DNA of 64,000 nucleotides from Candidatus Deferrimicrobiaceae bacterium (GTDB lineage: Bacteria; Desulfobacterota; Deferrimicrobia; Deferrimicrobiales; Deferrimicrobiaceae). The notes beneath the pieces are model-generated. The model was not told where the DNA came from. It searched no databases and saw nothing but the letters and a program-made list of their open reading frames with translations. The DNA lies in NCBI GenBank assembly GCA_963792415.1, contig CAWBVY010000004.1, forward strand, positions 1,167-65,166. The letters are read 5' to 3'. Below, one piece after another: positions 1,349 to 17,111 of this stretch (positions are counted from its first letter, which is position 1; each line of letters opens with the position of its first letter). A program made the translations under genes and the position numbers.

Positions 1349-1501
1349 CGTGGCCTCCTTTTCCCTCTTCCTTCAACCGGTCAGCGCGGGAATTCTCGTG
1401 TTTCCAACACGGTAATCCTTCCCGCCAGCCTTCGGAATCGGCTTCCGTCCGAAACGCGAGTCGCCGTTTGTCTGATTCTCGGCCCGGTGTTTGTCCTATG
1501 G
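1349..1501 (-). repeat. Copy A of the conserved upstream element (core 1429-1501 plus conserved leader to ATG 1348).
   Basis: Core CCTTCGGaATCGGCTTCcGTCCGAAAcGCGAGTCGCcGTTTGTCTGATTCTcGGCCCGGTGTTTGTCCTATGG aligns to five other copies. The leader carries GTGTTGGAAACACGAGAATTCCC...GGAAAAGGAGGccacgATG, nearly identical to copy F. Confidence 0.8.
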
Positions 1502-1550
1502 TTCAGAGCATCCGGAGGATGTGGAGGATGGCCGGCGGTTGTTCCATTCT

Positions 1551-2978
1551 TCATTCCGGCGGCGCCACCGAGCCGGCGTAGAACACTTCGCACGGCCCCG
1601 CGAAGAGTTTTCCCGTCTGTTTAATCAGATTGAGCAACGGCCCCGCAGCGGTTTGGAGGACGCTCACCTTCTCCACCTCCGGTTTCCGGAAAGGGCCTTG
1701 GATCTTTTGCCGCACCTTGGCGCATCCCTTCCCGTCGACCACCGCCACGGTGACATCGTTGAACCGTTCGTTGACGAAATCGAGACTCCCCACGAGCGCG
1801 ATCCGATTCTGGTTCGTAGCCATCGCCACATCCTTCGCCTGCGCAATGCCGCGTTCCACCTTCCAGTCGGAGACGAGCACCCGGATACTGCTGCTGCCGC
1901 CTGACCCCATGAAGAGACTCCCGAAGTTATATCCCTTCGTGATCAGCGGGCCGAAGGGGCCAGCAAAAAAGAAGGCGCCAACGTCGACAAGGTTGAAGTT
2001 CTGGCTGGCTTCGTATCGGGAGAACGTGCCGTCGAGGTCTACGCCGTCGAGCGTCAGGTTTCCACCCCGAAGGGAGAACTCGCCATTCGCGTTCCGCTTC
2101 ATCTCGTTCGCAGTCTTTCCCTGCGTCGAAAGGCGCGAGGAGAAGTCCATCGACCCTTCCGCGGCCTTCTTCGGCGACAGGGTCTTGAGGAACTCCTCGA
2201 TGCGGAATTTCGACAGGGAATATCGAACGTTGTAATGGGGGACAGGGCCCGAAAGGTCCGCCAGGAGGCTTCCCGACCCTTGCCCTCCGAAGAGGCGCAT
2301 CGTAGCCGGGTTGAGATCGAGGACGCCGCCCTTTCCCTCGATGTGGACTTTCAGGTTCGAGACCGCCAAACTCCCCTTGCGGAACTCCTTGCAGGAGAAC
2401 TCCGCCGTAAAGGAAAGGTTCTTCAGGAGGTGGTCCGGGGTTTCCCCTCCGGTGAACCGCAGGCGGCTCACGTCCAGGTCGAAGTTCCCGGCCTCGAGCA
2501 CTTCCCCGGAAATATTGTCCGCATAGAAGAGGGCGCCCTCCGAGAGGAAAAATTTCTTCGCGTTCAGAAAGAATCGCGTCCCTTTGGTCTCCTTCCGTTC
2601 TTCGAAGTTGAATTTCCCGTCGCGGTCCTGCTCGATGGAGATCCGGGGGCGCTTCATCCCGATCTTTACGATCCGGACTTCCTTGTGGAGGAGGGGGAGA
2701 AGTTCGATCCCGAGGATGGCCTCCTTCGCGGAGGCAACGTCCAAACCGCGGTTCCGGATGCGCACATCCCCCAGCGTTACATGGAAGCCCGGGAAGAAGC
2801 CGATCCCCAGATTGCCGCCGATGCGGACTTCCATCCCCAGAGCGTCGGAGGCGGCCGCCTCCAGCCGGGGCTTGTGCGCGTTCACATCCACGAAGAGAAC
2901 CAGCACGACCGCCGCGAGGATGAGAAGCGCAACGATCCCCCCGGCCGCGAAGAGGACGATTTTCCGTTTGTTGGCCAT
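1551..2978 (-). CDS. AsmA-family outer-membrane assembly protein.
   Basis: N-terminal TM (IVLFAAGGIVALLILAAVVLVLFV) followed by an AsmA-like N-domain (GMEVRIGGNLGIGFFPGFHVTLGDVRIRN). 475 aa. Confidence 0.55.
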   Translation of the reverse strand: MANKRKIVLFAAGGIVALLILAAVVLVLFVDVNAHKPRLEAAASDALGMEVRIGGNLGIGFFPGFHVTLGDVRIRNRGLDVASAKEAILGIELLPLLHKEVRIVKIGMKRPRISIEQDRDGKFNFEERKETKGTRFFLNAKKFFLSEGALFYADNISGEVLEAGNFDLDVSRLRFTGGETPDHLLKNLSFTAEFSCKEFRKGSLAVSNLKVHIEGKGGVLDLNPATMRLFGGQGSGSLLADLSGPVPHYNVRYSLSKFRIEEFLKTLSPKKAAEGSMDFSSRLSTQGKTANEMKRNANGEFSLRGGNLTLDGVDLDGTFSRYEASQNFNLVDVGAFFFAGPFGPLITKGYNFGSLFMGSGGSSSIRVLVSDWKVERGIAQAKDVAMATNQNRIALVGSLDFVNERFNDVTVAVVDGKGCAKVRQKIQGPFRKPEVEKVSVLQTAAGPLLNLIKQTGKLFAGPCEVFYAGSVAPPE

Positions 2979-3061
2979 TCGTTTTCCCCTTTATAAGGTC
3001 AGGGGGGCGACCCCGTACAATCTTCGGGATCGCGGCTTATTCAACATTCTTCGAAGATCTC

Positions 3062-4468
3062 CTACAACCCACGTTCAAATTGATGCGCAAACCACTCCTT
3101 GACTCTGTTGAGCCAAGGTCTTTTTCCCCACTCTTCCAGCCGAATCTCATCGGACGCCGCGATATCCCCTGCGAACATCTTCTCCATTTCCGCGGCGAAT
3201 TCCTTGTTCAGAATCACCGCGTTCACCTCGTCGTTGGAGGAAAAACTCCAGAAGTCCATATTGGTCGAGCCGACCGTCGACCAGACGTTGTCGATTACCG
3301 CGGTTTTCGCATGCAGCAGGACATCCCGGCGTTCGTATAACTTCACCCCCGATTTCAAAAGCTCGGAATAGTAATACCTTCCTGCATTCATGGTCAGGGA
3401 AGAATCGGTGGTTCCGGGAAGAACAATCTTCACGTCGACCCCGCGACTGGCGGCATCGATGAGAGCTTTCACCGTCTCTTCATCGGGGACAAAATACGCA
3501 TTCGTCAGGTGGAGCGAATTTTCCGAAAACGTGATGGCGGACACATACAGGACGAACGTGAGCCTGTTGGTCTCTCCCGGGGAACTGCCGACCGCCCGCA
3601 CCAGGGCATCCCCCCCGGCTTTCGGAGCCGGGAAATAGTTCCGCTCGGAAAGTTTCGGGCCCTCCTGTCGCTGCCACGTGTCCAGAAACAGTTTCTGGAA
3701 TTCAGCCACGACCGGGCCTTCGATCCGAACGTCCGTGTCACGCCAAGGTATCGCCGCGATGTTGTCCTGTTTTCCCCCGGAAAGCTGGCTACTCCCGGAA
3801 GGCCGGCTTGAATAAACCGCACTGATGTTGATGCCCCCCGTAAAAGCGACTTTACCGTCGATAATCAGAATCTTGCGGTGATCCGGATGCGCAATGCCCC
3901 ATGATTTGCCGGCTTCCAGGGGATTGATCGGGTTGAAGGCGACGACCAGAATTCCCGCATCGCGCAGGCGCTGAAAAAACGGAGCGGGAGTATTGAAGCT
4001 CCCTCTGCTGTCATAGATGAGATTCACCTGGACGCCTTCCGCCTGTTTTTTCAGCAACAGTTCGGAAAATCTGCGGCCTGTTTCATCGTCTTCAATGATA
4101 AAAGTTTCAAGGTTGATATGGTCCCTGGCATTCTCCATCGCCTTGAACATGGCGGCGTAGGTCGCAGGACCATCGATGAGCAGAGTGACTTTGTTCCCGT
4201 TTGTCAGCGGGCTTCCGCTCACCGACTCGATGACGGCGCTATAGCGTTGCAGCATGTCCGTCGGGGCGACGGAATTCTTCAGCCGATCCATAAGAACCTT
4301 GCTTTTTCCGGGAGACAACAATCCATTCGCCGAGAGGATTTGAGGGGGTTCCTGGGTGCTCGCGTTATCGATCGCGTCCGAAACCTTCGGCAATGTCGCA
4401 CATCCGCCGCCGAGGCTCAGCAGGGAGACCGACAGCAAGAACCAAATGAAAGACCTGATGATCTTCAT
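3062..4468 (-). CDS. Phospholipase-D family cardiolipin-synthase-like lipoprotein.
   Basis: Two HKD motifs (HRKILIIDGKVAFTGGINI and HAKTAVIDNVWSTVGSTNMD). Signal peptide and lipobox LSLGGGC. Confidence 0.8.
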   Translation of the reverse strand: MKIIRSFIWFLLSVSLLSLGGGCATLPKVSDAIDNASTQEPPQILSANGLLSPGKSKVLMDRLKNSVAPTDMLQRYSAVIESVSGSPLTNGNKVTLLIDGPATYAAMFKAMENARDHINLETFIIEDDETGRRFSELLLKKQAEGVQVNLIYDSRGSFNTPAPFFQRLRDAGILVVAFNPINPLEAGKSWGIAHPDHRKILIIDGKVAFTGGINISAVYSSRPSGSSQLSGGKQDNIAAIPWRDTDVRIEGPVVAEFQKLFLDTWQRQEGPKLSERNYFPAPKAGGDALVRAVGSSPGETNRLTFVLYVSAITFSENSLHLTNAYFVPDEETVKALIDAASRGVDVKIVLPGTTDSSLTMNAGRYYYSELLKSGVKLYERRDVLLHAKTAVIDNVWSTVGSTNMDFWSFSSNDEVNAVILNKEFAAEMEKMFAGDIAASDEIRLEEWGKRPWLNRVKEWFAHQFERGL

Positions 4469-4549
4469 CGTTTATTCCGATGGTAAATAATTTGTATCCC
4501 AGCGGCATGAAGAAACCTGTTCATGCAGCCGGAGGATATGCCGCCCTCG

Positions 4550-4735
4550 CTACTTCCCGAAAACCTTCTTGACCTGGCCGAACTTTCCCTGAATTTTGCC
4601 GGCGATCTTTTCGCCGGTGCCTTCCGCTTCCAACGTTGGATCATCGCTTAGTTTCCCGGCGACCTCCTTGACCTTGCCCTTCAGTTCGTGAAACGTGCCT
4701 TCCGCCTTGTCCTTCGTGCCGGATTTCATGTGCAT
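4550..4735 (-). CDS. CsbD-family general stress protein.
   Basis: 61 aa, MHMKSGTKDKAEGTFHELKGKVKEVAGKLSDDPTLEAEGTGEKIAGKIQGKFGQVKKVFGK; classic CsbD repeats. RBS GAAGGAGGA. Confidence 0.9.
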   Translation of the reverse strand: MHMKSGTKDKAEGTFHELKGKVKEVAGKLSDDPTLEAEGTGEKIAGKIQGKFGQVKKVFGK

Positions 4736-4878
4736 TCCTCCTTCGTATCTCGCCCTGCAGGCGCCGGTTTTCCCGTATTAAACACACGGTAACGCTGCCC
4801 GCCGGCCTTCGGTATCGGCTTCTGTCCGAAACACGAGTCGCTGTTTGTCCGATTCTTGGTCCGGTGTTTGTCCTATGG
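4736..4878 (-). repeat. Copy B of the conserved upstream element (core 4806-4878), reading toward csbD.
   Basis: CCTTCGGTATCGGCTTCTGTCCGAAACACGAGTCGCTGTTTGTCCGATTCTTGGTCCGGTGTTTGTCCTATGG, followed by a leader with TTACCGTGT and RBS-ATG of csbD. Confidence 0.8.
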
Positions 4879-4938
4879 GTTGAAGCGTCTGCTGCGGATG
4901 GAAAACTTTCTCGTCCCCTCTTCGGAAAACCGTTCGAT

Positions 4939-5098
4939 CCATCGGACAAACACCGGTGTGAAAATCGGACAAACAACGAATCACATTTCGGACATAGGCC
5001 GATGCCCCCAACGCCGGAACGGGGCTATCTTGGCGATATCAGTTTGAATAACCGGGGGGGGCGGATGACCGTTCCCAAGTCCAAGTAGAGGAGCCGGC
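4939..5098 (+). repeat. Copy C of the conserved upstream element (core 4939-5006, inverted relative to B), reading toward the 5099 ORF.
   Basis: CCATCGGACAAACACCGGtgtgaAAATCGGACAAACAacgaatcacaTTTCGGACATAGGCCGATGCC. B and C sit tail-to-tail 60 bp apart, giving divergent arrangement. Confidence 0.75.
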
Positions 5099-6709
5099 AT
5101 GTCGACGTCGAAAATACTCTCCAAAGGATGGCACAACAACAGGCGAGAGGGTAACGGATCGAGGCCCGCCGGAATGTTCCGGCGGGCGCTCCTCTCCGGA
5201 GCCATCGCACTCATTCTCCTGTTGCCGGGCGCGGGCTTCTCCGCGGAGCCCGCCCCTGCCGCCGCTCCTGCCGAGGGGGCGGTGGCGGCCGTCGACAATC
5301 TTCTGATCACGACGCCTCCCCCTCCCCCCAACGTGCGGAAGCCGGTTCTGGCGTGGGGAGAGGGAAACGGCAAGAGCTATTCGGTTCCAGCGTGGGACAT
5401 CCTTGGCTTCGAGGCGCTCCTCAACGTGTACGGCCGGATCGTTTACCCCGACCTGGTGGACCCGAAATATTCGAACGGAAAGAAAGTCTACAGCGTGACC
5501 CTGGAAACCATAAAGGACCACATACTCCACGGCCCCTGGGGATTCGACGGCGACGACTTCCAGGTGAACCAGCTCCAGCATCCGTATCAGGGATCCGTCT
5601 ATCATGGATTCGCGCGGTCGGCCGGCCTCGGCTTCTGGCCATCGGCCGCCTATACCTTCCTGGGCAGCCTGGCCTGGGAGATTGCCGGGGAGACCACGAA
5701 TCCCTCCATCAACGACCAGGTCGCGAGCGGCATCGGCGGGAGTCTCATGGGGGAGCCGCTCTTCCGGTTGTCGAGCCTGATCCTCGAAGACGGCGGCGAT
5801 CACCCCGGATTCTGGCGCGAGCTGGGCGCGGCGGTGATCTCGCCCCCGACCGGCTTCAATCGCCTCGCTTTCGGCGACCGGTTCAAAGGGGTGTTCCCGA
5901 GCCACAACCCGGCCACCTTCACGCGCCTGCGGCTCGGCGTGAGCCTTACCAATCAGGTTTCCGGAGTGTCAACCGACAACGTCGACCAGCGAGAAGTGTC
6001 CGCAGACTACTCCCTCTCCTACGGGCTCCCCGGGAAAGACGGCTACACCTACGACCGCCCGTTCGACTACTTCCACTTCCAATTCACCGTTGTCTCCAGC
6101 AAGAACGGCTTCGAAAACCTCATGACCCGCGGCCTTCTTTTCGGAAAGAAATACGAGGCGGGCGAGGACTATCGCGGGATATGGGGCCTTTACGGGAGCT
6201 TCGACTACATCTCGCCGCAGGTTTTCCGCGTTTCCAGCACGGCCCTTTCCCTCGGCACTACCGGCCAGTGGTGGCTCACGCGCGCGATAGCGCTTCAAGG
6301 CTCGGCGCTCGGCGGAGTCGGATACGGCGCGTCGGGCTCCGTCCACCCCGTTGAGGAGCGCGACTACCACTACGGCGGGGTAGGTCAGGGGCTTCTTGCG
6401 GGACGCCTGATCTTCGGGGACAAGGCCATGATCGACCTGACGGCACGCGAATACTATATCAGCGGCTTCGGTTCCACCCAGACGGATGGATCGGAACGCA
6501 TCTTCCGCGGAAACGCGTCGTTCACCGTGAGCATTTACAAGCGCCACGCGCTCGGGATCCAGTACGTCATGTCGCGCCGGGATGCGTCCTCTCCCCTTGT
6601 CCCCGACACGCATCAAACGGTTGGAACCTGGAGCCTCGCCTACAACTTCCTCGGCAGCTCCCGGTTCGGCGCCGTCGAGTGGCGGCCTGCCGAAATCGAG
6701 GCTCGCTGA
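5099..6709 (+). CDS. Secreted / outer-membrane hypothetical protein (DUF3943-like).
   Basis: Signal peptide (ALLSGAIALILLLPGAGFSA), a Pro-rich linker, and a conserved ETTNPSINDQVASGIGGSLMGEPLFR block. 536 aa. Family assignment is tentative. Confidence 0.45.
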   Translation: MSTSKILSKGWHNNRREGNGSRPAGMFRRALLSGAIALILLLPGAGFSAEPAPAAAPAEGAVAAVDNLLITTPPPPPNVRKPVLAWGEGNGKSYSVPAWDILGFEALLNVYGRIVYPDLVDPKYSNGKKVYSVTLETIKDHILHGPWGFDGDDFQVNQLQHPYQGSVYHGFARSAGLGFWPSAAYTFLGSLAWEIAGETTNPSINDQVASGIGGSLMGEPLFRLSSLILEDGGDHPGFWRELGAAVISPPTGFNRLAFGDRFKGVFPSHNPATFTRLRLGVSLTNQVSGVSTDNVDQREVSADYSLSYGLPGKDGYTYDRPFDYFHFQFTVVSSKNGFENLMTRGLLFGKKYEAGEDYRGIWGLYGSFDYISPQVFRVSSTALSLGTTGQWWLTRAIALQGSALGGVGYGASGSVHPVEERDYHYGGVGQGLLAGRLIFGDKAMIDLTAREYYISGFGSTQTDGSERIFRGNASFTVSIYKRHALGIQYVMSRRDASSPLVPDTHQTVGTWSLAYNFLGSSRFGAVEWRPAEIEAR

Positions 6710-6712
6710 ATC

Positions 6713-7534
6713 GTGATGTCGCGGAAGGCGAACGGAACAACGGCGATGATCCATTTCCTCCGAATCGGCTTTGGACTGGCCGTGTTGCTTCTCCCTCTCG
6801 GCCATCGATGCGTCGCGGAGGACAACGGGGCGATTTCACGGAGCTACGAAGCCGTAAAAACGGACTTCGGGAATTTTTACCTGGACCGGGGGAACCTGAC
6901 CCGGCTCGGGATCGGCGTTGCCGGAGCCGCCGTGTTCGCCAACACAAATATGGATATGTATATCCGCGACAAGTATCAGAACAGCACGCGAAGCCACCTG
7001 ACGGACCAGGCGACGAAAATATTCAATGGTTCCGCCACCGAAATCGCTCTCGTTCTCGGAACGTCCTACCTCGGCGCCTACGGGGCCGGGGTGTGGCTTC
7101 ATAATCCGACGATGGAGGAATGGGCCCTGAAATCGGTCCGTGCGACCGTTGTGGGCGCACCCGCCCTCGTGTTCCTGGCGGTGGCAACCGGGGCAGACCG
7201 GCCGACCGAGGGAGATTCCCACTGGGGGGGGTATCAGAATTTCCACGGGGTGAGCGGCCACACGTACTTCGCGGCGGTTCCTTTCATCACCGCCGCGAAG
7301 ATGAGCGAAAACCCCTACCAGAAGGGGGTCCTCTATTTTCTATCGACGTTTCCGGCGCTCTCCCGGATCAACGACGACAAGCACTATTTTTCCCAGGTCG
7401 CCCTGGGGTGGTACCTCGCGTATTTGAGCTGCGCCGTCGTCGAGAAGGGAACCGATCAGCGGGAAGGACGCACGCATGTCCTGCTCGCTCCCGTCCCCAA
7501 AGGGCTCGCGGTTACGGTGCAGAAGAGGTACTGA
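6713..7534 (+). CDS. PAP2-superfamily phosphatase (membrane/periplasmic).
   Basis: FHGVSGHTYFAAVPF ... SRINDDKHYFSQVALG (PAP2 motifs 2 and 3). Start overlaps the upstream stop (TGATG). Confidence 0.65.
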   Translation: MMSRKANGTTAMIHFLRIGFGLAVLLLPLGHRCVAEDNGAISRSYEAVKTDFGNFYLDRGNLTRLGIGVAGAAVFANTNMDMYIRDKYQNSTRSHLTDQATKIFNGSATEIALVLGTSYLGAYGAGVWLHNPTMEEWALKSVRATVVGAPALVFLAVATGADRPTEGDSHWGGYQNFHGVSGHTYFAAVPFITAAKMSENPYQKGVLYFLSTFPALSRINDDKHYFSQVALGWYLAYLSCAVVEKGTDQREGRTHVLLAPVPKGLAVTVQKRY

Positions 7535-7541
7535 CCGCGTC

Positions 7542-8369
7542 ATGGCGCTTCCGGGGAGAGCGACGGCCGGCCTGCTGGTCCTCGTGACAGCGCTGCTGTG
7601 GCAGCGCCCCATCGCGGCGGCCCCGGTACCGGTGCGTTTCGCCGAGGGGTCCCTCCACGGCTTCCTCGTGCTGACCACCCCGAAGGAAGTCCTCATCGCC
7701 TCAGGCGATCTTCTCCAGGTCGGCCGGGACGGAGAAGTCAGGAGTCGCCTGGTATTCCACTTCAAGGATGGATCGCTGCTCGACGAGACGGTGGTGTTCA
7801 CCCAGCGGAACGTCTTTACCCTGCAGAGCTACCATCTGGTGCAGCGCGGGCCGGCGTTCCCCGAGGACACCGAGATCTCGCTGGACCGGGCCTCCGGGAA
7901 GTACCGTGTGAAAACCAGGGCCCGCAAGGACGGACGGGAGAACCAGCTCGACGGCACGCTCGATCTGCCCCTCGACGTCTACAACGGCATGGTCCTCACC
8001 GTACTGAAGAACCTGTCCGGAGGGGCCGGCGATACCATCCACATGGTAGCCTTCACTCCCGCGCCGAAACTCATCCAACTGAAAATGGTACCGGCGGGCG
8101 AGCAGAAAGTGCTGGTCGGCGGATCCGAAAAATCCGCAACCCACTACGTGCTCAAGCCGATTCTCGGTTTCTGGTTGAAACTTTTCACGACGCTGCTTGG
8201 GCGCGTGCCCCCGGACAACCACGCCTGGATCATCACCGCCGACGTGCCGGCATTCGTGAAGTTCGAAGGGCCGCTCTACATGAACGGACCGGTCTGGCGG
8301 ATCGAACTCACCAGCCCCCGCGGGACCGGCCGGAAGCCTCCGGTTGAGGAAGATCGCCAGATAAAATAA
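7542..8369 (+). CDS. Hypothetical secreted protein.
   Basis: Signal peptide MALPGRATAGLLVLVTALLWQRPIAAAP. Coding-like composition; no recognisable domain. Confidence 0.5.
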   Translation: MALPGRATAGLLVLVTALLWQRPIAAAPVPVRFAEGSLHGFLVLTTPKEVLIASGDLLQVGRDGEVRSRLVFHFKDGSLLDETVVFTQRNVFTLQSYHLVQRGPAFPEDTEISLDRASGKYRVKTRARKDGRENQLDGTLDLPLDVYNGMVLTVLKNLSGGAGDTIHMVAFTPAPKLIQLKMVPAGEQKVLVGGSEKSATHYVLKPILGFWLKLFTTLLGRVPPDNHAWIITADVPAFVKFEGPLYMNGPVWRIELTSPRGTGRKPPVEEDRQIK

Positions 8370-8431
8370 CCTGTGTTCGTACGGATCGCGGAAGGTTCCG
8401 GGATTCGAAGCATTCTTCACCAGGAGGCCGG

Positions 8432-11400
8432 ATGAAGGTCGTCATCACGCTCTCCCCGCGGGACTACGACGCGGTCCTGTTCGATCTCGACGGGGTGCTG
8501 ACCCGGACGGCGAGTGTGCATGCCTCGGCCTGGAAAAAGCTGTTCGACGGTTTTCTCGAGCAGCGCTCCACCCGGACAGGCGAGCCGTATGTCCCCTTCG
8601 ACATCGCCGCCGACTACCCGCGCTACGTCGACGGCAAGCCGCGGTACGACGGCGTGGCGGCCTTCCTCGCGTCACGCGGAATCGAATTGCCGTTGGGTGC
8701 GCCCGAAGACGGCCCCGACGTGCAAAGCGTGAGCGCGCTGGGCAATCTGAAGGACGAATATTTCCTGAAACACCTGGAGCGGCACGGCGTCGATCCCTAT
8801 GAAGCGGCGATCGCGCTAGTACGCAAACTCCGGGCGCAGGAGGTCAAGACCGCCGTCGTGTCCTCCAGCAACAACTGCGAGGCGGTGCTGGAGGCGGCGG
8901 GTATCGCGCAGCTGTTCGACACGCGGGTGGACGGGACGGACGTCACCCGCCTCGAGCTCAAGGGGAAGCCGGCACCGGATGCTTTCGTGGAGGCGGCACG
9001 GCGCGTCGGTGCGGAACCTTCGCGTTCCGTCGTCGTGGAGGACGCGATCGCCGGCGTCGAGGCGGGACGCGCCGGCCGATTCGGGTGCGTCATCGGCGTC
9101 GATCGCAGGGGACACGCGCAGGCGTTGCGCGATGCCGGCGCCGATGTCGTGGTGAGTGATCTGGCGCAAGTTCGGGTGGCGGTGGAACCGGCATCCGCGT
9201 GGTCGCTGGTGTACGAGAGCTTCGACCCGGCGCGCGAGGGTATCCGCGAATCCTTGTGCACCCTGGGGAATGGCTATTTCGCGACGCGCGGTGCCTCCCC
9301 CGGAGCGGTGGCGGACGGCATTCACTATCCGGGGACCTACCTCGCCGGGGGCTACAACCGGTTGCGCACCGATCTCGCCGGTCACGTGGTCGAGAACGAG
9401 GATCTCGTGAATTTCCCCAACGGGTTCGCGCTCGGGTTCCGCATCGCCGGACAGGACTGGTTCGATGCACGAACCGTCAAGCTCCTGTCGTACCGCCAGG
9501 AGCTCGACCTGAGGCGCGGCATGCTGTTTCGAAGCATACGCTTCGAGGACGGCCAGGGGCGGCGCAGCACCCTCGAGGAGCGACGCCTGGTCTCGATGGG
9601 CGACATGCACCTGGGCGCGCTGGAACTGTCGTTGACCGCCGAAAACTGGTCCGGAAACGTGACGGTCCGCTCGGCGATCGACGGACGCGTCGTCAACGCG
9701 GGCGCGAAGCTGTACCGCAAGTTCAACAACAAGCACCTGGAGCCGCTGGCAAGCGAATTCGTCGGCGAGGACAGCGTGTTCCTGCTGGTGCGCACCAGCC
9801 AGTCGAATCTTCATGTCGCGCAGGCGGCCCGGACGAGAGCGACCCTCGACGGACAGCTTCTCGAGGGTCGACGCCGGGGTATCGAGGAGCCGGGGTACAT
9901 CGCCCAGGAACTGGAGGTCGACGTCGGGCAAGGCGGGACGCTGGTGCTGGAGAAGCTTGTCTCCTTCTACTCCTCGCGCGATCACGCCATTTCGGAGTGC
10001 GGGCTGGAGGCGCGCAAGGCGATCGCGCGCGCGGGTCGCTTCGACGCCGTGATGGCGGCCCATGTCCTGGCCTGGAAACACTTGTGGCGCCGCTTCGACG
10101 TGCATATCCGACCGGCGGATCCCGGGTTCAAGTTGAACGTCCCGATGCTGCTTCGGCTGAACATGTTCCACCTGCTGCAAGGCGTATCGCCCAACTCCAT
10201 CGGTATCGATATCGGCGCACCCCCGCGGGGCTGGACCGGGGAAGCGTACCAGGGCCATATTTTCTGGGATGAACTGTTCATCTTCCCGTTTTTCAACTAT
10301 CGAATGCCGGAAATCACCCGATCGCTTCTGATGTATCGCTACCGGCGCCTGGGCGAGGCGCGCGCCGCCGCCGCGGCTGCCGGATACAAGGGAGCGATGT
10401 TCCCCTGGCAGAGCGGAAGCGACGGTCAGGAAGAGACCCAGGCGCTCAACCTGAACCCGCGCTCGCAGCGGTGGATGCCCGACAACACCTACCTGCAGCG
10501 CCACGTGAACAGTGCCATCGCCCATAACGTCTGGCAGTACTTCCAGGTCACTCACGACGTCGAGTTTCTTCAGCACTACGGCGCGGAGCTGATCCTCGAT
10601 ATCGCCCGCTTCTGGTCGAACATCGCGAGCTTTGATGACGAGCGCGGGCGCTACGAGATCCACGGCGTGATGGGCCCTGACGAGTTTCACGACGGCTATC
10701 CGGATGCCGCGTCGCCCGGTCTCAAGAACAACGCCTATACCAACATCATGGCCGTGTGGGTGCTGTGCCGGGCACTGGACGTGCTCGGCCTGCTGCCCGA
10801 CATTCGTCGCTCCGAGCTCACGACCCGGCTTGCCTTGTCGGCGGAAGAGATCGCGCGCTGGGACGATATCAGTCGCAGGATGTATGTGCCGTTCCATGAC
10901 GACGGGATCATCAGCCAGTTCGAGGGCTACGATGAATTGCGTGAGCTCGATTGGGAGGATTACCGGACCCGGTACGGCAACATTCAGCGTCTCGATCTCA
11001 TCCTCGAGGCGGAGAACGACAGCGCCAACCGCTACAAGCTCTCGAAGCAGGCCGACGTGCTGATGCTGTTCTACCTGTTTTCCTCCGAGGAATTGGGGGA
11101 GCTGTTCGCGCGTCTGGACTATCCGTTCGAATACGAGACCATTCCGCGAAACGTCGCCTACTATGCAAGCCGCTCCTCCCACGGTTCCACGCTGAGTCGT
11201 GTGACAACTTCCTGGGTCCTGGCACGTTCCGACCGGCCGCGTTCGATGAGCTTCTTCGCGGAGGCTTTGCAGAGCGACGTGAGCGATGTCCAGCAGGGCA
11301 CCACCGCGGAGGGCGTCCACCTCGGCGCCATGGCGGGTACGGTCGATCTGGTGCAGCGGGTATCGACGGGTATCGAAGTCAGAGGCGATGTTCTGCGGCT

Positions 11401-11617
11401 CAATCCGGAATTGCCGCGGGAGATGGAGCGCCTCGACATGCGCATCCGCTACCGCGGGCATTCACTCGACCTGCGGCTGACGCGCGACTCGCTCAGGGTC
11501 CGCGGGCATGATGGCGCGGCGCCGCCGATCACCTTGAGTGTCGACGGCAAGGTCTGCGAATTCGTCAGCGGCACGACCCGATGGTTTCGATTGAACGACG
11601 AGGCAACGGTCGGCTGA
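8432..11617 (+). CDS. Fusion of a beta-phosphoglucomutase-family HAD hydrolase with a GH65 glycoside-hydrolase-family phosphorylase (trehalose/maltose/kojibiose-phosphorylase type).
   Basis: N-terminal HAD motifs (VLFDLDGVLT ... KGKPAPD ... VVVEDAIAGVEAG), then GH65 N-terminal, catalytic (a/a)6 and C-terminal domains (FWDELFIFPFFNYRMPEITRSLLMYRYRRL). 1061 aa. Good RBS AGGAGG. Confidence 0.85.
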   Translation: MKVVITLSPRDYDAVLFDLDGVLTRTASVHASAWKKLFDGFLEQRSTRTGEPYVPFDIAADYPRYVDGKPRYDGVAAFLASRGIELPLGAPEDGPDVQSVSALGNLKDEYFLKHLERHGVDPYEAAIALVRKLRAQEVKTAVVSSSNNCEAVLEAAGIAQLFDTRVDGTDVTRLELKGKPAPDAFVEAARRVGAEPSRSVVVEDAIAGVEAGRAGRFGCVIGVDRRGHAQALRDAGADVVVSDLAQVRVAVEPASAWSLVYESFDPAREGIRESLCTLGNGYFATRGASPGAVADGIHYPGTYLAGGYNRLRTDLAGHVVENEDLVNFPNGFALGFRIAGQDWFDARTVKLLSYRQELDLRRGMLFRSIRFEDGQGRRSTLEERRLVSMGDMHLGALELSLTAENWSGNVTVRSAIDGRVVNAGAKLYRKFNNKHLEPLASEFVGEDSVFLLVRTSQSNLHVAQAARTRATLDGQLLEGRRRGIEEPGYIAQELEVDVGQGGTLVLEKLVSFYSSRDHAISECGLEARKAIARAGRFDAVMAAHVLAWKHLWRRFDVHIRPADPGFKLNVPMLLRLNMFHLLQGVSPNSIGIDIGAPPRGWTGEAYQGHIFWDELFIFPFFNYRMPEITRSLLMYRYRRLGEARAAAAAAGYKGAMFPWQSGSDGQEETQALNLNPRSQRWMPDNTYLQRHVNSAIAHNVWQYFQVTHDVEFLQHYGAELILDIARFWSNIASFDDERGRYEIHGVMGPDEFHDGYPDAASPGLKNNAYTNIMAVWVLCRALDVLGLLPDIRRSELTTRLALSAEEIARWDDISRRMYVPFHDDGIISQFEGYDELRELDWEDYRTRYGNIQRLDLILEAENDSANRYKLSKQADVLMLFYLFSSEELGELFARLDYPFEYETIPRNVAYYASRSSHGSTLSRVTTSWVLARSDRPRSMSFFAEALQSDVSDVQQGTTAEGVHLGAMAGTVDLVQRVSTGIEVRGDVLRLNPELPREMERLDMRIRYRGHSLDLRLTRDSLRVRGHDGAAPPITLSVDGKVCEFVSGTTRWFRLNDEATVG

Positions 11618-11680
11618 TACGACGGAAGAAGTGACCCACAGGATCGCCGGGACGGTCGTGGCGATGGTCCTGTATTTACT

Positions 11681-12355: not shown

Positions 12356-12503
12356 ATCCATAAGGGGTGGGGGTTCGGCCGATGACGGGAGGAGGATCGA
12401 AGGCGGGGGGGGTGCTCGTCCTCTCGGCGGCGGCCGACGTCGTGTCCCAGGTCTCCGGGGCGATTTCCTGGCCAAAGGACCTCTCTAAGCCTCCCGCGGC
12501 CCC

Positions 12504-13352
12504 ATGATCCTGCTCGGCATCCTTTCGACGGTCGCGGCGCTGGCCTGGCTCTGGCGGTGGCTCGTGCGCCACGAAGCCGGTGTGCGGCACCGGTGGGCGG
12601 AGCTTGCCACCCATCCACGGGTCACCGCTCTTCGCACCCGGTTCCCGTCCCAGATCGCTTTCCTCCAGGCGCGCCTCTCGCCAGCCGGATTCCTCGGGCT
12701 CGACCTGACCACCGGGGCCATCATCCTCATTGGCGCCAGCTGGATTTTCGGAAAGGTCGCCGAGGACGTGGTCACGGGCGATCCGCTCACCGTCGTGGAC
12801 AGGGAAATCGCCGTGTGGCTGCACCTTCACGCCACGCCGACCCTCACCGAAGCCATGAAGTTCCTCTCCCTGCTCGCCTCGTTGCCGGTGGTGACGGGCA
12901 TCTGCCTGTTCATGGTGGCATACTTCGTCCGGGAGCGTTCCCGCTTCCATCTCCTGGCGCTGCTGCTGACCATCCCCATCGGCATGTTGATGAACACGAT
13001 GCTGAAATACGCGTTTCATCGTTCGCGGCCGGCCTGGGACGATCCCATCCTTATGATTGGAAGCTTCAGTTTCCCCAGCGGTCACGCGATGGCGGCGACA
13101 CTGCTCTACGGTTTTCTGGCCGCATTCGTCGTAAGGAAGGTGCAGGCCTGGCGATGGCGGGTGCTGACGGTGCTTGCCTCCGGCCTGCTGATCGTGCTGA
13201 TCGGCTTCAGCCGCCTTTACCTTGGCGTTCATTACTTGAGCGATGTGCTCGCAGGCATGGCGGCAGGGTCGGCGTGGCTTGCGCTTTGCTGGATCGCCGT
13301 GGGAGCCCTCCGGCGTCATCGGGGCCAAGGGCAAGGGGCCGGATCAACGTAA
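12504..13352 (+). CDS. PAP2-family lipid phosphatase (integral membrane).
   Basis: KxxxxxxRP ... SFPSGHAMAA ... SRLYLGVHYLSDVLAG; six TM segments. Confidence 0.85.
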   Translation: MILLGILSTVAALAWLWRWLVRHEAGVRHRWAELATHPRVTALRTRFPSQIAFLQARLSPAGFLGLDLTTGAIILIGASWIFGKVAEDVVTGDPLTVVDREIAVWLHLHATPTLTEAMKFLSLLASLPVVTGICLFMVAYFVRERSRFHLLALLLTIPIGMLMNTMLKYAFHRSRPAWDDPILMIGSFSFPSGHAMAATLLYGFLAAFVVRKVQAWRWRVLTVLASGLLIVLIGFSRLYLGVHYLSDVLAGMAAGSAWLALCWIAVGALRRHRGQGQGAGST

Positions 13353-13383
13353 ATCGTCGTTCCGGCCCCTCGCCCCCGTGCCC

Positions 13384-13698
13384 CTATTTCACAATCAGAT
13401 TGTTCTTCACCGATTTGACACCACCGACACCGCGGGCGACCTCTCCTGCCTTTTGTTTGGCCTCTGCCGAATCGACAAACCCGCTCAACTGGACTTCCCC
13501 TTTGAACGTCTCGACATTGATCTGGAACACTTTCAGGGCGGAATCACCCAATATTGCGGATTTCACCTTGGTCGTGATCGCCGAGTCATCGATGTACTCG
13601 CCGGTGCCCTCTTTTTTTGGCGTGGAAGCGCACCCCACGAATACGGTGATCAACGCGATGCAGACCAGGAAACTCAAAATGCGATGCCTTTTTACCAT
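13384..13698 (-). CDS. BON-domain lipoprotein (OsmY-like).
   Basis: Lipobox FVGCAS; the BON region carries KSAILGDSALKVFQINVETFKGEVQLSGFVDSAEAKQKAGEVARGVGGVKSVKNNLIV. Confidence 0.85.
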   Translation of the reverse strand: MVKRHRILSFLVCIALITVFVGCASTPKKEGTGEYIDDSAITTKVKSAILGDSALKVFQINVETFKGEVQLSGFVDSAEAKQKAGEVARGVGGVKSVKNNLIVK

Positions 13699-13730
13699 GA
13701 TCCTCTCTCCTATCGTCCAGGGTTGGGACC

Positions 13731-13949
13731 TTATTTCTTCATGGGCACAAGAAGCAGTGCCGCGCCGGCCGCGATCGCCGCCACGCCTGCCCAGGCGGGG
13801 ACGTTGACCGTCTCCTTTTCCTGTACAGACAGATTGATCGGTCCCAGTTTGGCGTCGTGGGTCTCCTTGGTGTAGCTGAACTTTCCGTACACCACCCCCA
13901 GGAGGCCGGCCACGATCAATGCGATGGCCAAGATCCTGATTCCGCTCAT
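13731..13949 (-). CDS. Small 2-TM membrane protein (hypothetical).
   Basis: 72 aa with hydrophobic N- and C-terminal helices, operonic with the BON and lmo0937-family genes. Confidence 0.5.
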   Translation of the reverse strand: MSGIRILAIALIVAGLLGVVYGKFSYTKETHDAKLGPINLSVQEKETVNVPAWAGVAAIAAGAALLLVPMKK

Positions 13950-13999
13950 CTCGTCTCCTTCCTGCCAGGATCCGCCGCAGAGAAGCGTTCCCGGACCAC

Positions 14000-14149
14000 T
14001 ACACGACCCTTCGTCCCTGAATTACATTGATCAGCACCACCACGACCGCGATGACCAGGAGAACGTGAATGAATCCGCCCATCGTGTACGAAGTGACCAA
14101 ACCCAGCGCCCAAAGGACAAGCAGGATAACGGCGATGGTCCAGAGCATT
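14000..14149 (-). CDS. lmo0937-family small membrane protein.
   Basis: A 49-aa ORF not present in the ORF track: MLWTIAVILLVLWALGLVTSYTMGGFIHVLLVIAVVVVLINVIQGRRVV. RBS GGGAGGAGG. Matches the lmo0937/DUF5670 signature MLWTI..LL..W..G...GG.IH.LLVIA. Confidence 0.75.
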
Positions 14150-14297
14150 TTTCGTCACCTCCTCCCGTGAGCCGGAAACGTACATTTACCGCATGCATCC
14201 CATATTGATACTTCCCGACGGCCATCGGTATCGGCATCTGTCCGAAATGCGAGCCGATGTTTGTCTGATTCCCGGCACGGTGTTTGTCCTAATCGGC
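14150..14297 (-). repeat. Copy D of the conserved upstream element (core 14223-14297), reading toward the lmo0937-family gene.
   Basis: CCATCGGTATCGGCATCTGTCCGAAATGCGAGCCGATGTTTGTCTGATTCCCGGCACGGTGTTTGTCCTAATCGG. Confidence 0.8.
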
Positions 14298-14628
14298 CGG
14301 AAGTTCCCCCCCGACCTTCGGCGTCGTCACCTCCACCACATTGGAGGGCGACGATCCGCCGAAGGCGTTCCTTGCAAAAACCCGGTAGCGGTAGGTCGTG
14401 CAAGGATCTACGGACCCGTCGCGGAAGGCCGCGATACGCGGCCCCACCTTGCCAATCTCCACAAATTGCGTACGAGGGCTGTGACAGTCTTCTCGCTCGA
14501 CGCGGAACCCGAGTCCGACGGCCCCGCATTCGGTCCACGCCAGAAGCACCTCGCAACCGCCAGCGGCGACCGCCACCAGATCGACTGGTGCGGAAGGAAG
14601 GGCGCGACGCGAAGATCGATTAGCCATT
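14289..14628 (-). CDS. Small fibronectin type-III domain protein.
   Basis: LLAWTECGAVGLGFRVERED ... YRYRVFARNAFGGSSPSNVVEVTT (FN3 beta-sandwich signature). I chose the ATG at 14628 (RBS AAAGGAGGAAGA) over the ATG at 14720, which lies inside the repeat. Confidence 0.6.
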
Positions 14629-14795
14629 CTTCCTCCTTTCGCTCCGGCAAGTACAGATCGTGAAAACCCGGCCCGTCTGGCGAGGAAATCATCCTGTGGG
14701 TAGCATCTCCTGGAAAGCATGCGGGACGGAACAGGGATCCGTCCGAAAAGCGGACCTCAGTTTGTCTGATTCTTCGCCCGGTGTTTGTCCTATGG
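14629..14795 (-). repeat. Copy E of the conserved upstream element (core ~14722-14795; left arm degenerate), reading toward the FN3 gene.
   Basis: ...GTCCGAAAAGCGGACCTCAGTTTGTCTGATTCTTCGCCCGGTGTTTGTCCTATGG. Confidence 0.7.
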
Positions 14796-14821
14796 CGGGA
14801 AGGGGCGCCGGAGGGTACGGA

Positions 14822-15454
14822 TCAATCCACCAGCTTGTTCTGGATGGCGTAATGGGTTATTTCCGCGTTGTTCTTCATCCTCGTCTTCAGCAGGATGTTG
14901 GTCCGATAGCTGCTGATCGTCTTCGCGCTCAGGCATAACTCCTTGGCGATCGCACCGACGGGTTTTCCGGAGGCAATCATCAGCATCACCTGGTATTCAC
15001 GGTCCGACAGAATTTCGTGGAGCGGTTTTTCCGAGTCGATATCTAATTCGCCCGCCAGGATTTCGGCGAGCGTGCTACTGATGTATCTCTCGCCTTTCAG
15101 CGCTTTCCGGACCGCAAGGACCAGCTCGTCACCCGCGCATTCCTTCGTGAGGTACCCGGAGGCGCCTCCGCGCATGGCACGTATCGCAAACTGTTCCTCC
15201 GGGTGCATGCTGAGGATCAGGACGGGGAGCTTCGGCTTGTGCTGCTTGATCTCCTTCAATACGTCCAATCCGCTCTTCCCGGGCATCTTGATGTCCAGCA
15301 CGACCAGGTCGTATTCACTCTTCAAGACCTTGCCCAACGCTTCCTGACCGTTGCTCGCCTCGGCGACCGTGATGGGCTGGAGGGTCTCCGCAAGCACCTT
15401 CACCAATCCTTTACGTACGATTTCATGGTCATCGGCGACCAGTAATCTAAGCAT
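14822..15454 (-). CDS. NarL/LuxR-family response regulator (REC + HTH_LuxR).
   Basis: LLVADDHEIVRKG ... LDIKMPGKSG ... LSDREYQVMLMIASGKPVGAIAKELCLSAKTISSYRTNILLK. Confidence 0.9.
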   Translation of the reverse strand: MLRLLVADDHEIVRKGLVKVLAETLQPITVAEASNGQEALGKVLKSEYDLVVLDIKMPGKSGLDVLKEIKQHKPKLPVLILSMHPEEQFAIRAMRGGASGYLTKECAGDELVLAVRKALKGERYISSTLAEILAGELDIDSEKPLHEILSDREYQVMLMIASGKPVGAIAKELCLSAKTISSYRTNILLKTRMKNNAEITHYAIQNKLVD

Positions 15455-16487
15455 TCGCGGTCGCCCCTTCTCTATCGGGAAGTGTCACTCTTACCGAGGT
15501 CCCCTCGCCTGGTTTCCCACGGATTACGACTTCACCTCCGAGTAGCCGGACGCGTTCCCGAATCCCGATGAGGCCAAACGATTTGGGACCGGCACTCCGC
15601 CCTTCGGTGATCCCGATTCCGTTGTCACTCACCTCCACGATCAGGGTATGGTCCTTCTTCTTCAAGCTCACGTTCACCTGTGACGCCGCGGCATGGCGCA
15701 TGACATTGGTCAGTGCCTCCTGAACGATGCGGAAGATCGCCGTGGCGCGGACGGTGTCGGAGATCTTATCCACTCCCTGTATGGCAACTTTGCAGCCGGT
15801 CCCTGTCCGTTTCTGGAATTCCTTCGACATCCATTCAATTGCGGCGACCACGCCGAGTTCATCCAGGACCCCGGGCCTCAGGTCGGTCGCAATCTTTCGC
15901 ATCGTCCGGATGATCCGGTTTATAGCGCGTTCGTTTTCTTGAATTTTCCCGGCCTGCCCGGCATGTCCGCCGGAGACCAGGCTTCTTCTTGTCAACGAGA
16001 GATCTATTTTCAGGGCCGTCAACGCCTGTCCCAGTTCATCGTGGATTTCGCGAGAGATTCGCGTCCGTTCTTCCTCGAGCTGGGATTGCAGACGATCCGA
16101 GAGGAAGCGCAACCGCTCGCGGGAATTCCTGATCTCCTCCTCTGCGCGCTTCCCCTCGTCGAGCATCTTCTTCATGAGCCGGTTCGCCACCAACAGCTCG
16201 GCCGTCCGCTCCTCGACGCGTCTTTCCAACTCCTTGCTGGCGTTGGCCAAGATCTCTTCTACTTTATGGCGTGGGGTGATGTCGCGAATGTTGCATTGAA
16301 TCACTTTCGTGCTGTTCTCCTGGTAGACGTTGCTGACAAACTCGACATACCTGCGCTCGCGCCCTTTGGTTTCCAGCGGCAGGTTGTCGTAACGGATATA
16401 CTCCTTCCTCTGCAATCTCCTGAAAGCGCCCCGGCTGGCCTTGATATCCCTGAATGGGCCGATTTCCCAGAGCATCTTGCCGAGCAA
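15447..16487 (-). CDS. Cytoplasmic PAS sensor histidine kinase (HisKA_3 + HATPase_c). The N-terminal region appears frameshifted; it would extend to ~16782.
   Basis: H-box REIHDELGQALTALK; N/G boxes (TNVMRHAAASQV, DNGIGI, GLIGIRERV). Upstream in a +1 frame are the rest of the PAS N-cap (ERNRIREALNASEIRYRRVFETAKDGILILDARTGRITDANPFLQELLGYSRAELLGK) and a coiled-coil start MPSKTKSHLMEENATLRARLADLEDKL with a strong RBS at 16782. Confidence 0.8.
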   Translation of the reverse strand: MLGKMLWEIGPFRDIKASRGAFRRLQRKEYIRYDNLPLETKGRERRYVEFVSNVYQENSTKVIQCNIRDITPRHKVEEILANASKELERRVEERTAELLVANRLMKKMLDEGKRAEEEIRNSRERLRFLSDRLQSQLEEERTRISREIHDELGQALTALKIDLSLTRRSLVSGGHAGQAGKIQENERAINRIIRTMRKIATDLRPGVLDELGVVAAIEWMSKEFQKRTGTGCKVAIQGVDKISDTVRATAIFRIVQEALTNVMRHAAASQVNVSLKKKDHTLIVEVSDNGIGITEGRSAGPKSFGLIGIRERVRLLGGEVVIRGKPGEGTSVRVTLPDREGATANA

Positions 16488-16940
16488 CTCTGCGCGGGAA
16501 TACCCCAGCAGTTCCTGGAGGAAGGGGTTTGCGTCGGTGATCCGTCCCGTTCGCGCGTCCAGGATGAGGATGCCGTCTTTTGCCGTCTCGAAGACTCGCC
16601 GGTAGCGAATTTCGGAAGCATTCAGCGCCTCCCGGATCCGATTGCGCTCGGCAATCCTCGATCTCCGGCAGTTCCCCTCCGTTGACGGAGGATCGGTTGG
16701 TCAACTTGTCTTCCAGGTCGGCCAGGCGCGCCCGCAAGGTGGCATTCTCTTCCATGAGGTGGGATTTCGTTTTGGATGGCATCTCCACCTCCCAAGTACG
16801 GGTGTGTCCTTCCGCCAATTGCAGGTACCTTAATTATTGTAGCAAGACAATCTCATCTCCACCTCCTCCTTCCACGAGCCGCGGCTCCGATCGATCTCCC
16901 GATTCGATCGGAGAGGATGGGACCTTCTTTACCCTATTAC

Positions 16941-17111
16941 CCATAGGACAACCACCGGTCCGAAAATCAGACAAACAGCGGGACGCGATTCGGACAGAAG
17001 CCGATACCGAAGGCAGGCGGGCAGGACTAACGTATTGGAAAGACGAGAATACCTGCACCTGCCGGTTGAAGGACGAGGAAAAGGGGAGCGTGGTTTCACG
17101 ATGATGCAATC
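16941..17111 (+). repeat. Copy F of the conserved upstream element (core 16941-17013 plus leader), reading toward the 17112 small ORF and cgs.
   Basis: CCATAGGACAACCACCGGtccgaAAATCAGACAAACAGCGggacgcgaTTCGGACAGAAGCCGATACCGAAGG. Leader ...GTATTGGAAAGACGAGAATACC...CCGGTTGAAGGACGAGGAAAAGGGGAGcgtggtttcacgATGATG is near-identical to copy A. Confidence 0.8.

Follow-up and report, generated by a model that had tools for sequence, protein, structure and literature searches.

A probable triple-repeat promoter cassette upstream of putative stress and envelope genes in Candidatus Deferrimicrobiaceae

The general stress regulons of EcfG (alphaproteobacterial), sigma-B (Firmicute) and RpoS are each driven by a dedicated sigma factor. 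Response regulators can also be arrayed on tandem sites next to a promoter: OmpR has three contiguous ~20-bp sites upstream of the −35 region at ompF and ompC, and LytTR regulators recognize 9-bp direct repeats with a period of 21–22 bp. BvgA of Bordetella, a member of the NarL family that activates the promoters Pfha and Pptx, binds Pfha as three head-to-head dimers spaced every 22 bp, with the last dimer abutting the −35 region, and deletion of 22-bp units keeps the phasing (PMC7250471). Here we analyze a 64-kb stretch of DNA (the window) from a Candidatus Deferrimicrobiaceae bacterium (contig CAWBVY010000004.1, positions 1,167 to 65,166), which carries six copies, A to F, of a ~95-bp cassette. 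The lineage is the uncultured phylum MBNT15/Deferrimicrobiota (PMC9386147); clustering at 90% identity groups the NrfD protein of the window with a ‘Candidatus Deferrimicrobium sp.’ entry. The cassette is a real and apparently undescribed gene-control signal. From its sequence, it is probably an activator-dependent promoter in which three tandem operators are joined to a weak, non-canonical core promoter and a leader, and it would be read by the adjacent NarL-type regulator.

Copies and anatomy of the cassette

The pattern GGACAANCNCC-N8-AATCNGACAAAC matched exactly six times in the 64 kb, versus 0 expected from shuffled sequences. The 13-mer CCGGTGTTTGTCC, with up to two mismatches, occurred 11 times versus 2.15 expected, and 10 of these 11 occurrences were inside copies A to F. 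When the window was scanned by nhmmer with a profile hidden Markov model (HMM) of 130 unique copies, only copies A to F were found (E-values from 4e-29 to 7e-18); the next best match had an E-value of about 1. The six positions proposed in the original prediction were thus confirmed by pattern and profile alike, and all fall within the first 17 kb of the window. Every copy is intergenic and points to a downstream gene backed by Pfam or family conservation, in agreement with the common orientation that had been claimed. The start codon lies 138–166 nt from the first G of unit 1, i.e. 77–105 nt past the end of unit 3.

The core consists of three direct units (U1 to U3) repeated with an exact 23-bp period in the 130 unique copies. 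The units share a consensus of approximately wwTCGG-ACAAACA-CCGAww. Counting from the first G of the first GGACAAAC, U1 (CATAGG-ACAAACA-CCGG) is centered at +5, U2 (AATCRG-ACAAACA-GCGA) at +28 and U3 (TTTCGG-ACAGAWG-CCGATA) at +51. The direct repeats at 23 bp were already part of the original prediction and stand, but its two half-sites become three units: the third is the ‘TTTCGGACAGA’ block, and the element written there as ‘TTTCGGACAGAAGCCGAT’ is the third repeat. U3 and U2 contain an internal dyad (TCGG-N7-CCGA), with mean arm complementarity of 0.74 at +51 and 0.56 at +28, and the dyad at +51 is the strongest anywhere within the element. The TTCGG...CCGAA inverted repeat or hairpin that had been described did not survive comparison, as it is complete in 60 of 130 copies and its 5′ arm never compensates for changes in the 3′ arm.

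Conservation begins abruptly at −5, with no promoter-like signal upstream of that point. Downstream of the units, a block at fixed spacing reads GGATTAYCGTGT or GGATCAGCATGW. Within it, positions +83 (A) and +87 (T) each carry 1.5 bits of conservation, giving a −10-like TAnnnT at +82 to +87, and the segment from U3 to TAnnnT is free of insertions and deletions in almost all copies. Copies of the fn3 type, including copy E, diverge after +62 and have TGCTAY in its place. Two length variants were found. A two-unit variant (L036 8232–8298, minus strand) has lost exactly one 23-bp unit while retaining normal spacing to the downstream block; the 405-aa gene behind it has homologs with copies of three units. 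Loss of exactly one unit with the spacing kept is the behavior of phased protein-binding sites. In the other variant (L049 3753–3809, minus strand) unit 1 is shorter by 10 bp.

The segment from +78 to +88 can also be read in most copies as a Shine-Dalgarno-like GGA at +78 and, after a gap of 5 nt, GTG, ATG or TTG at +86 in ~90% of copies, as at window positions 1408–1418 and 14201–14211 (both minus strand); this could be an upstream start codon at a fixed position. No conserved stop or peptide was found for such an upstream open reading frame (ORF), and in DUF5670-type copies its frame overlaps the real gene out of frame.

Copy A (1408–1502, minus strand; E = 4.4e-29) has U1 at 1482–1500 (CATAGGACAAACACCGGGC), U2 at 1459–1477 (AATCAGACAAACGGCGACT), U3 at 1436–1454 (TTTCGGACGGAAGCCGATT) and the −10-like TACCGT at 1409–1414. 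Copy B (4784–4879, minus strand; E = 4.5e-27) has its units at 4859–4877, 4836–4854 and 4813–4831 and TACCGT at 4786–4791. It is back-to-back with copy C (4938–5032, plus strand; E = 1.5e-19), the unit-1 starts at 4873 and 4944 having 70 bp between them; the units of copy C are at 4940–4958, 4963–4981 and 4986–5004, followed by TATCTT at 5026–5031. Copy D (14201–14292, minus strand; E = 9e-26) contains units at 14275–14293, 14252–14270 and 14229–14247 and CAATAT at 14202–14207. The fn3-type copy E (14726–14796, minus strand; E = 6.6e-18) has units at 14776–14794, 14753–14771 and 14730–14748; its sequence past unit 3 is unlike that of the other copies, with a TGnTA extended −10-like TGCTACCCA at 14697–14705. 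Copy F (16940–17034, plus strand; E = 4.5e-24) has units at 16942–16960, 16965–16983 and 16988–17006 and TAACGT at 17028–17033. Identity is 82% over 152 nt between copies A and F, 81% over 129 nt between A and B, and 78% over 138 nt between B and F. The proposed continuation of similarity through the leader is therefore real for these three copies, and it extends to the ribosome-binding site (RBS).

Target families and the syntenic regulator

A metagenome scan with a strict pattern reached at least 120 contigs, across which the cassette lies upstream of the same ~16 gene families. At least 142 strict copies were recovered, the window included, and a further 45 looser copies were added by the profile HMM; two additional strict matches, in L080 and L110, are due to chance. 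For 127 strict copies enough downstream sequence was available, and all 127 are followed by a co-oriented ORF, which is conserved in at least two other loci in 109 cases. The families comprise an orphan 77-aa protein (~25 loci), DUF5670 (~22), a PAF-AH-like lipoprotein (~12), a BON lipoprotein (~12), an extracytoplasmic function (ECF) sigma factor (~10), Thivi_2564 (~9), CsbD (~8) and an OsmY-like double BON protein (6–9). DUF3943, an fn3-like protein, PAS-GAF-GGDEF, LTXXQ, an EipA-like protein, Usp and DUF6627 also recur. This recurrence in at least 120 contigs supports the earlier suggestion that a single regulator or an alternative sigma factor controls a stress and envelope regulon dispersed over the genome. 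Independent gene calls gave the same placement for two copies in L126, one in L127, one in L128 and three in L130, seven of seven being upstream of co-oriented genes if one 77-aa ORF in L126 that the gene calls missed is counted. L129 is without a copy.

The 77-aa protein (MRAVTVYRVDYG...) is the most frequent target and is often present as several paralogs per contig, for example at L004 219–449 (minus strand), L126 9364–9597 (minus strand) and L130 10001–10234 (plus strand). The family has the motif MRAVTVYRVDYGRKTKDPIG...NNYxDLLRLARRLF... and only 378 homologs among 5.8 billion proteins. It had no Pfam or NCBIfam match. An AlphaFold (AF2) model of moderate confidence (pLDDT 72) consists of a beta-hairpin, a helix and a strand, and a Foldseek search of this model against the PDB returned nothing below E = 1.

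A two-component pair lies between copies E and F, as had been pointed out, and we found it in tight conserved synteny with the copies. It consists of a NarL/FixJ-type response regulator with a receiver and a GerE helix-turn-helix (HTH) domain (14822–15454, minus strand; Pfam, NCBIfam) and a PAS-HisKA_3-HATPase histidine kinase (15447–16782, minus strand; Pfam). We found regulator and kinase orthologs (75–96% identity) in at least 19 loci retrieved by the DNA motif alone. In 14 of 15 loci a copy begins 27–29 bp past the regulator stop codon (29 bp for copy E), with a second copy ~535–596 bp farther on, and in five of five loci a divergent copy lies 76–200 bp upstream of the kinase start. Copy F is divergent from the kinase start at a distance of 158 bp. 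This divergent copy faces the ECF gene in L046 and L078, and probably in L035 and L085; in the window it faces ORFs of 56 and 2915 aa. Besides the ECF sigma factor, no DNA-binding protein other than the NarL-type regulator was seen to keep its synteny with the copies.

The kinase/regulator operon has an extended −10, TGCTACAAT, at 16836–16844 (minus strand), ~55 nt upstream of the kinase ATG, and the element is conserved as TGnTATAAT in L055, L078, L085 and L046. By this motif the operon promoter is a canonical housekeeping promoter of the sigma-70 type, from which it follows that the housekeeping promoters of this lineage look canonical, unlike those of the cassettes. A canonical sigma-70 promoter was found in none of the copies. 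The presence of TGnTATAAT at the kinase operon and the lack of a canonical sigma-70 promoter in the cassettes point to activator dependence.

We suggest that a dimeric HTH activator would occupy the three units on roughly one helix face, and that the promoter-proximal dimer would abut the −35 region and recruit RNA polymerase. A dimeric HTH protein on phased operators would account for three 23-bp repeats that reach ~90 bp upstream of the likely start, which an ECF sigma factor cannot. The likeliest activator would be the phosphorylated NarL-type regulator encoded between copies E and F, acting with the PAS histidine kinase. If transcription starts near +94, which is a guess, the unit centers would be at about −89, −66 and −43; if the −10 element is +82 to +87, U3 (+42 to +60) would end at the −35 position. 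The activator may thereby switch on a lineage-wide general and envelope-stress regulon that includes CsbD, BON/OsmY, DUF5670, Thivi_2564, LTXXQ, Usp, lipid and glucan functions and the 77-aa protein. The ECF sigma gene, accompanied by a zf-HC2 anti-sigma gene in some genomes, lies within this regulon, and its product could be an amplifier or the sigma factor that reads these promoters.

The same anatomy would be expected if the units were operators of a repressor that binds cooperatively along the promoter region and leaves it under stress. Tandem, phased and highly conserved sites do reach right to the promoter, and the sign of regulation is not fixed by sequence. However, with the −10 element at +82 to +87 the units lie upstream of the −35 region rather than over the −10 element or the start, and sites upstream of −35 are in the usual position for an activator. 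Moreover, with no good −35 and a weak −10 the promoter would be nearly silent without activation, hence a repressor would be unnecessary. We infer activation rather than repression, and consider the repressor model unlikely.

Several observations weigh against an activator-dependent promoter read by the NarL-type regulator. Synteny with the regulator is known in the clade of the window, whereas the ECF loci in L126, L127 and L128 have a cassette without an adjacent regulator ortholog. The window kinase carries a 1-nt insertion (GAGATCGAG-G-ATTGCC) at about 16658 (16650–16665, minus strand) relative to the intact genes of L055, L046 and L078. It splits the gene into overlapping frames at 16264–16818 and 15447–16487 and is either a real frameshift, making the gene a pseudogene, or an assembly error. 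The dyad is barely present in U1, which has only GG-N7-CC, and the invariant asymmetric ACAAACA center is not obviously needed by a symmetric GerE-type dimer. There are two other −10-like blocks, GCCGATA at +54 and a GAGAAT-like sequence at about +99, either of which could be the real promoter. Finally, near-invariance over ~65 bp together with a leader that is 80% conserved goes beyond most operator arrays. The leader conservation suggests that more is encoded there, and an additional or different reader, the ECF sigma factor or a second factor, may be involved.

Sigma factors, RNA leaders and mobile repeats as alternatives

In at least 13 loci the ECF gene (Sigma70_r2 and r4_2; protein identity of 53–99%) is immediately preceded by a copy, and the homologs are named Candidatus Deferrimicrobiaceae, Candidatus Deferrimicrobium or ‘Deltaproteobacteria bacterium’. 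A zf-HC2 anti-sigma gene follows the ECF gene in L128; an anti-sigma gene was not recognizable next to the ECF gene in L064, L126 and L127. The surroundings of the ECF gene vary between genomes: in L128 (1249–4257) it is preceded by two KaiB genes and one for a PAS-HisKA protein and followed by zf-HC2, and in L127 (6705–9536) it has a divergent dCache hybrid kinase beside it. In L129 (11201–12318) a cassette-free, 65%-identical ECF gene sits beside a second ECF/zf-HC2 pair.

Consensus searches agreed with the earlier statement that the motif is neither sigma-54 nor EcfG. The sigma-54 consensus TGGCAC-N5-TTGC with up to two mismatches gave 37 matches in the window versus 41 expected, none of them gene-ward in the copies; one sigma-54-like match overlaps copy D on the opposite strand. 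The EcfG consensus GGAAC-N16/17-CGTT was absent from all copies, and a bipartite promoter of the GTTT-N-GGGTAT type was not found. Elsewhere in the window GGAAC-N16/17-CGTT occurs five times versus 1.66 expected, a count reached by 2 of 100 shuffles, with all sites outside the cassettes (46671–46697, 48622–48646, 51991–52015 and 58968–58992); two of the five are the two strands of one palindrome. Four further candidates were rejected. An ECF-type AAC-N16-GAC between successive units was unconvincing. GAATC-N17-CGTTTC as an ECF promoter failed in the 45 unbiased copies, in which AATC becomes ATTA, ATTC or AATA. GCCGATAC as a sigma-28-like −10 element agrees at seven of eight positions with the consensus GCCGATAA, but no TAAA −35 is present at the right distance. 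GGATTA...CGAGAAT farther downstream was also unconvincing as a promoter. All four provide alternative positions for the transcription start site only.

These results bear on the idea that the cassette serves mainly as the promoter recognized by the ECF sigma factor itself, through a −35/−10 pair within the conserved block. The factor would autoregulate its own operon, in some cases one of sigma and anti-sigma genes, and drive the regulon, with the upstream repeats as accessory elements. An operon of ECF and anti-sigma genes is the classic signature of an autoregulated ECF factor, and both the ECF gene directly behind a copy in at least 13 loci and the zf-HC2 gene after it in L128 fit this idea, as do the lack of a canonical sigma-70 promoter in the copies and a regulon content like those of EcfG and sigma-B. 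Yet no AAC...CGT-type pair at a spacing of 15–18 bp suits the invariant blocks, GAATC-N17-CGTT is not kept in the unbiased copies, and GGAAC-N16/17-CGTT is in none. The three 23-bp repeats and the conservation ~90 bp upstream of the putative start would be left unexplained. In addition, most ECF loci lack a recognizable anti-sigma gene, the 65%-identical ECF gene of L129 has no cassette, and the 64-kb window contains zero ECF genes despite its six copies. We regard this idea as improbable; it is partly compatible with the activator model, as a feed-forward arrangement of regulator plus ECF factor.

Edges of the conserved region were compared among 11 orthologous ECF promoters whose proteins are 53–99% identical. 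Mean identity was 46% in the 68-nt upstream flank, with 0 invariant columns, 90% in the core (44 of 68 columns invariant) and 80% in the leader (26 of 71). In the 130 unique copies, an analysis of mutual information with average product correction yielded no covarying base pair, the top pairs not being Watson-Crick, and neither the TTCGG/CCGAA arms nor other arm pairings showed two-sided or compensatory changes. No Rfam family matched at gathering thresholds over the 64 kb, or within the copies at E ≤ 5. In L008 and L026, divergent copies are back-to-back with unit-1 starts only 15–16 bp apart, leaving no room for a promoter upstream of the units. The longest ORF across the core had a median of 168 codons versus 269 at random positions, which carries little information because GC-rich DNA keeps frames open into the downstream gene. 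From the lack of covariation and of an Rfam match, the abrupt edge at −5 and the close spacing of divergent copies we conclude that the cassette, as judged by comparative analysis, works at the DNA level.

Alternatively, the conserved block could be a transcribed 5′ leader acting as RNA through its primary sequence, for example by offering three GGA-type sites to a CsrA-like protein or a small RNA. In favor of this, the leader stays conserved (80% identity) as far as the RBS, GGA is present in units 1 and 3, and the best NCBIfam match of the regulator is the UvrY/GacA family, below the family cut-off. Nevertheless, most copies have AGACA in unit 2 and so lack GGA there, and neither a stable conserved helix nor covariation nor a matching Rfam family was found. 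The 15–16 bp between divergent copies offer no space for a promoter upstream, and beyond the abrupt edge of conservation, 5 bp before unit 1, nothing in the sequence resembles a promoter. Exact loss of a 23-bp unit also suits helical phasing of DNA sites. Action as RNA is thus very unlikely.

Many copies per genome, the identity of copies A, B and F across 129–152 nt including the leader, and the apparent capture of the 5′ end of a 77-aa gene before the lipoprotein gene would be in keeping with a mobile repeat, similar to a repetitive extragenic palindromic (REP) sequence or a miniature inverted-repeat transposable element (MITE), with an outward promoter and spread by transposition. The identity of A, B and F through the leader does indicate that promoter-leader duplication has occurred. 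Against transposition, there are no long-range complementary column pairs, and no copy was seen within a gene or wrongly oriented, as a MITE would have implied; the gene calls in L126, L127, L128 and L130 agree. Orthologous positions before the same families are occupied even where the proteins are only 53–75% identical, and there the flanks diverge while the core is fixed. A mobile origin is extremely unlikely, and the comparative data support the original view of a promoter-plus-leader cassette rather than a random REP. REP and MITE elements share with the cassette their short, multi-copy intergenic nature and high copy-to-copy identity; they differ in that the cassette has a fixed orientation toward the gene and orthologous positions across genomes, without detected long-range complementarity.

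Genes behind the six copies and comparison with known systems

Copy A precedes a PAF-AH/chlorophyllase-like lipoprotein gene (2–1348, minus strand, running off the window; weak Pfam matches), whose family, with a lipoprotein signal, follows copies in ~12 loci. The lipoprotein had been correctly named as the target, but its proposed start at ATG 1348 opens with ‘MRAVTV...’, the N-terminus of the unrelated 77-aa family. The true start is probably MNRF at 1210, and codons 1–46 of the frame opening at ATG 1348 resemble a leader captured from the 77-aa family. This remnant (1211–1348, minus strand) is in frame ahead of the lipoprotein, and the same arrangement occurs in L008, L082 and L112. Copy B precedes csbD (61 aa; 4550–4735, minus strand; Pfam CsbD, 2.6e-17), a target in ~8 loci. 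A cardiolipin-synthase-like phospholipase D (PLD) gene (3062–4468, minus strand; Pfam PLDc_2) and an AsmA gene (1551–2978, minus strand; Pfam AsmA) may be co-transcribed with csbD.

Downstream of copy C is a DUF3943 gene (5099–6709, plus strand; Pfam), which also follows copies in four other loci. The subsequent plus-strand genes encode PAP2 (6713–7534), an ORF product (7476–8369) and a HAD plus GH65 phosphorylase (8432–11617), as identified by Pfam, and the short gaps across 5099–11617 suggest an operon. Copy D faces a DUF5670/lmo0937-like gene (13999–14148, minus strand; Pfam), followed on the same strand by genes for a 72-aa membrane protein (13731–13949) and a BON lipoprotein (13384–13698); DUF5670 and BON proteins lie downstream of copies in ~22 and ~12 loci, respectively. 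A long GC-rich hairpin (window 13317–13397; GGGGCCGGA...TCCGGCCCC, ~13328–13376) is situated just past the BON stop codon and has sub-threshold matches to miRNA precursor families (E = 0.24–2.2). It is probably the terminator of the copy D operon, though it lacks a following T-run.

The target of copy E is an fn3-like 112-aa protein (14289–14627, minus strand; weak Pfam fn3 match). A small fn3 gene had been predicted here and is retained, but its start moves from 14720 to ATG 14627, the start conserved in the family: MANR is conserved in L055, L057 and L106, and gene calling on a related contig gave a 112-aa gene at this position. Copy F is followed by a 56-aa membrane peptide ORF (17112–17282, plus strand) and a 2915-aa ORF (17442–26189, plus strand), for which cyclic beta-1,2-glucan synthase is a label from the original prediction only. 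By synteny with L046, L078, L035 and L085, the position after copy F holds the ECF sigma gene in related genomes. The 56-aa peptide has an N-terminal hydrophobic segment, and in our reading its C-terminus, VPGPGSAPGMLVAVGLALVGLGMRGRK, resembles a PEP-CTERM-type sorting signal.

In the literature searched, the motif strings turned up only as primers of unrelated studies, and among the papers found to name the genus none has a title or abstract dealing with its gene regulation. With no Rfam family and no relevant literature context for the motif strings, the earlier remark that the element may be undescribed is supported. Arrays of phased regulator sites joined to a promoter are familiar as a class, and the cassette leaves the understanding of bacterial transcription control unchanged. 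Its value lies elsewhere: from a motif of 95 bp, a stress regulon comprising 16 or more gene families, the orphan 77-aa family among them, can be predicted. The motif also points to two candidate regulators, the NarL-type two-component system and the ECF sigma factor, and opens a way into the gene regulation of a phylum for which metagenomes are the sole source. Mapping wetland and aquifer metatranscriptomes onto the cassette could reveal when these organisms experience stress in their habitat.

Tentatively, and with more doubt than we attach to the activator-dependent promoter itself, we suggest that the general stress response of MBNT15/Deferrimicrobiota may be wired through a PAS-kinase/NarL-type system and the three-operator cassette, unusually long and nearly invariant and present before each member of the regulon, with the ECF sigma factor as a feed-forward target, rather than primarily through a dedicated sigma factor. 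If true, this would be a further distinct architecture for the bacterial general stress response, and the cassette would be a sequence-defined regulon marker for a phylum without a cultured member.

The presumed regulon resembles those of EcfG, sigma-B and RpoS in that its targets include CsbD, BON/OsmY-type proteins, Usp, small membrane stress proteins and osmoprotection functions, and in that an ECF sigma gene lies behind the same upstream element as the regulon. It differs in that conservation resides in a 65-bp triple repeat preceding the promoter and the syntenic regulator is a two-component system. As with OmpR and LytTR regulators, the sites would be those of a response regulator, phased in tandem and ending beside the −35 region; however, those regulators belong to other DNA-binding families (winged helix and LytTR), of which no member was found in synteny here. 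The BvgA sites at Pfha differ in having a period of 22 rather than 23 bp and in being mostly weak and degenerate, whereas the cassette units, known from sequence alone, are near-invariant across genera, with an asymmetric ACAAACA center and a barely palindromic U1; moreover, the BvgA regulon is one of virulence and that of the cassette one of stress and envelope functions. The two systems nevertheless share tandem sites, here three units at 23 bp with the last beside the inferred −35 position, a variant shorter by one unit, which in this lineage is natural, and a regulator of the NarL type, here a candidate whose gene lies among the copies.

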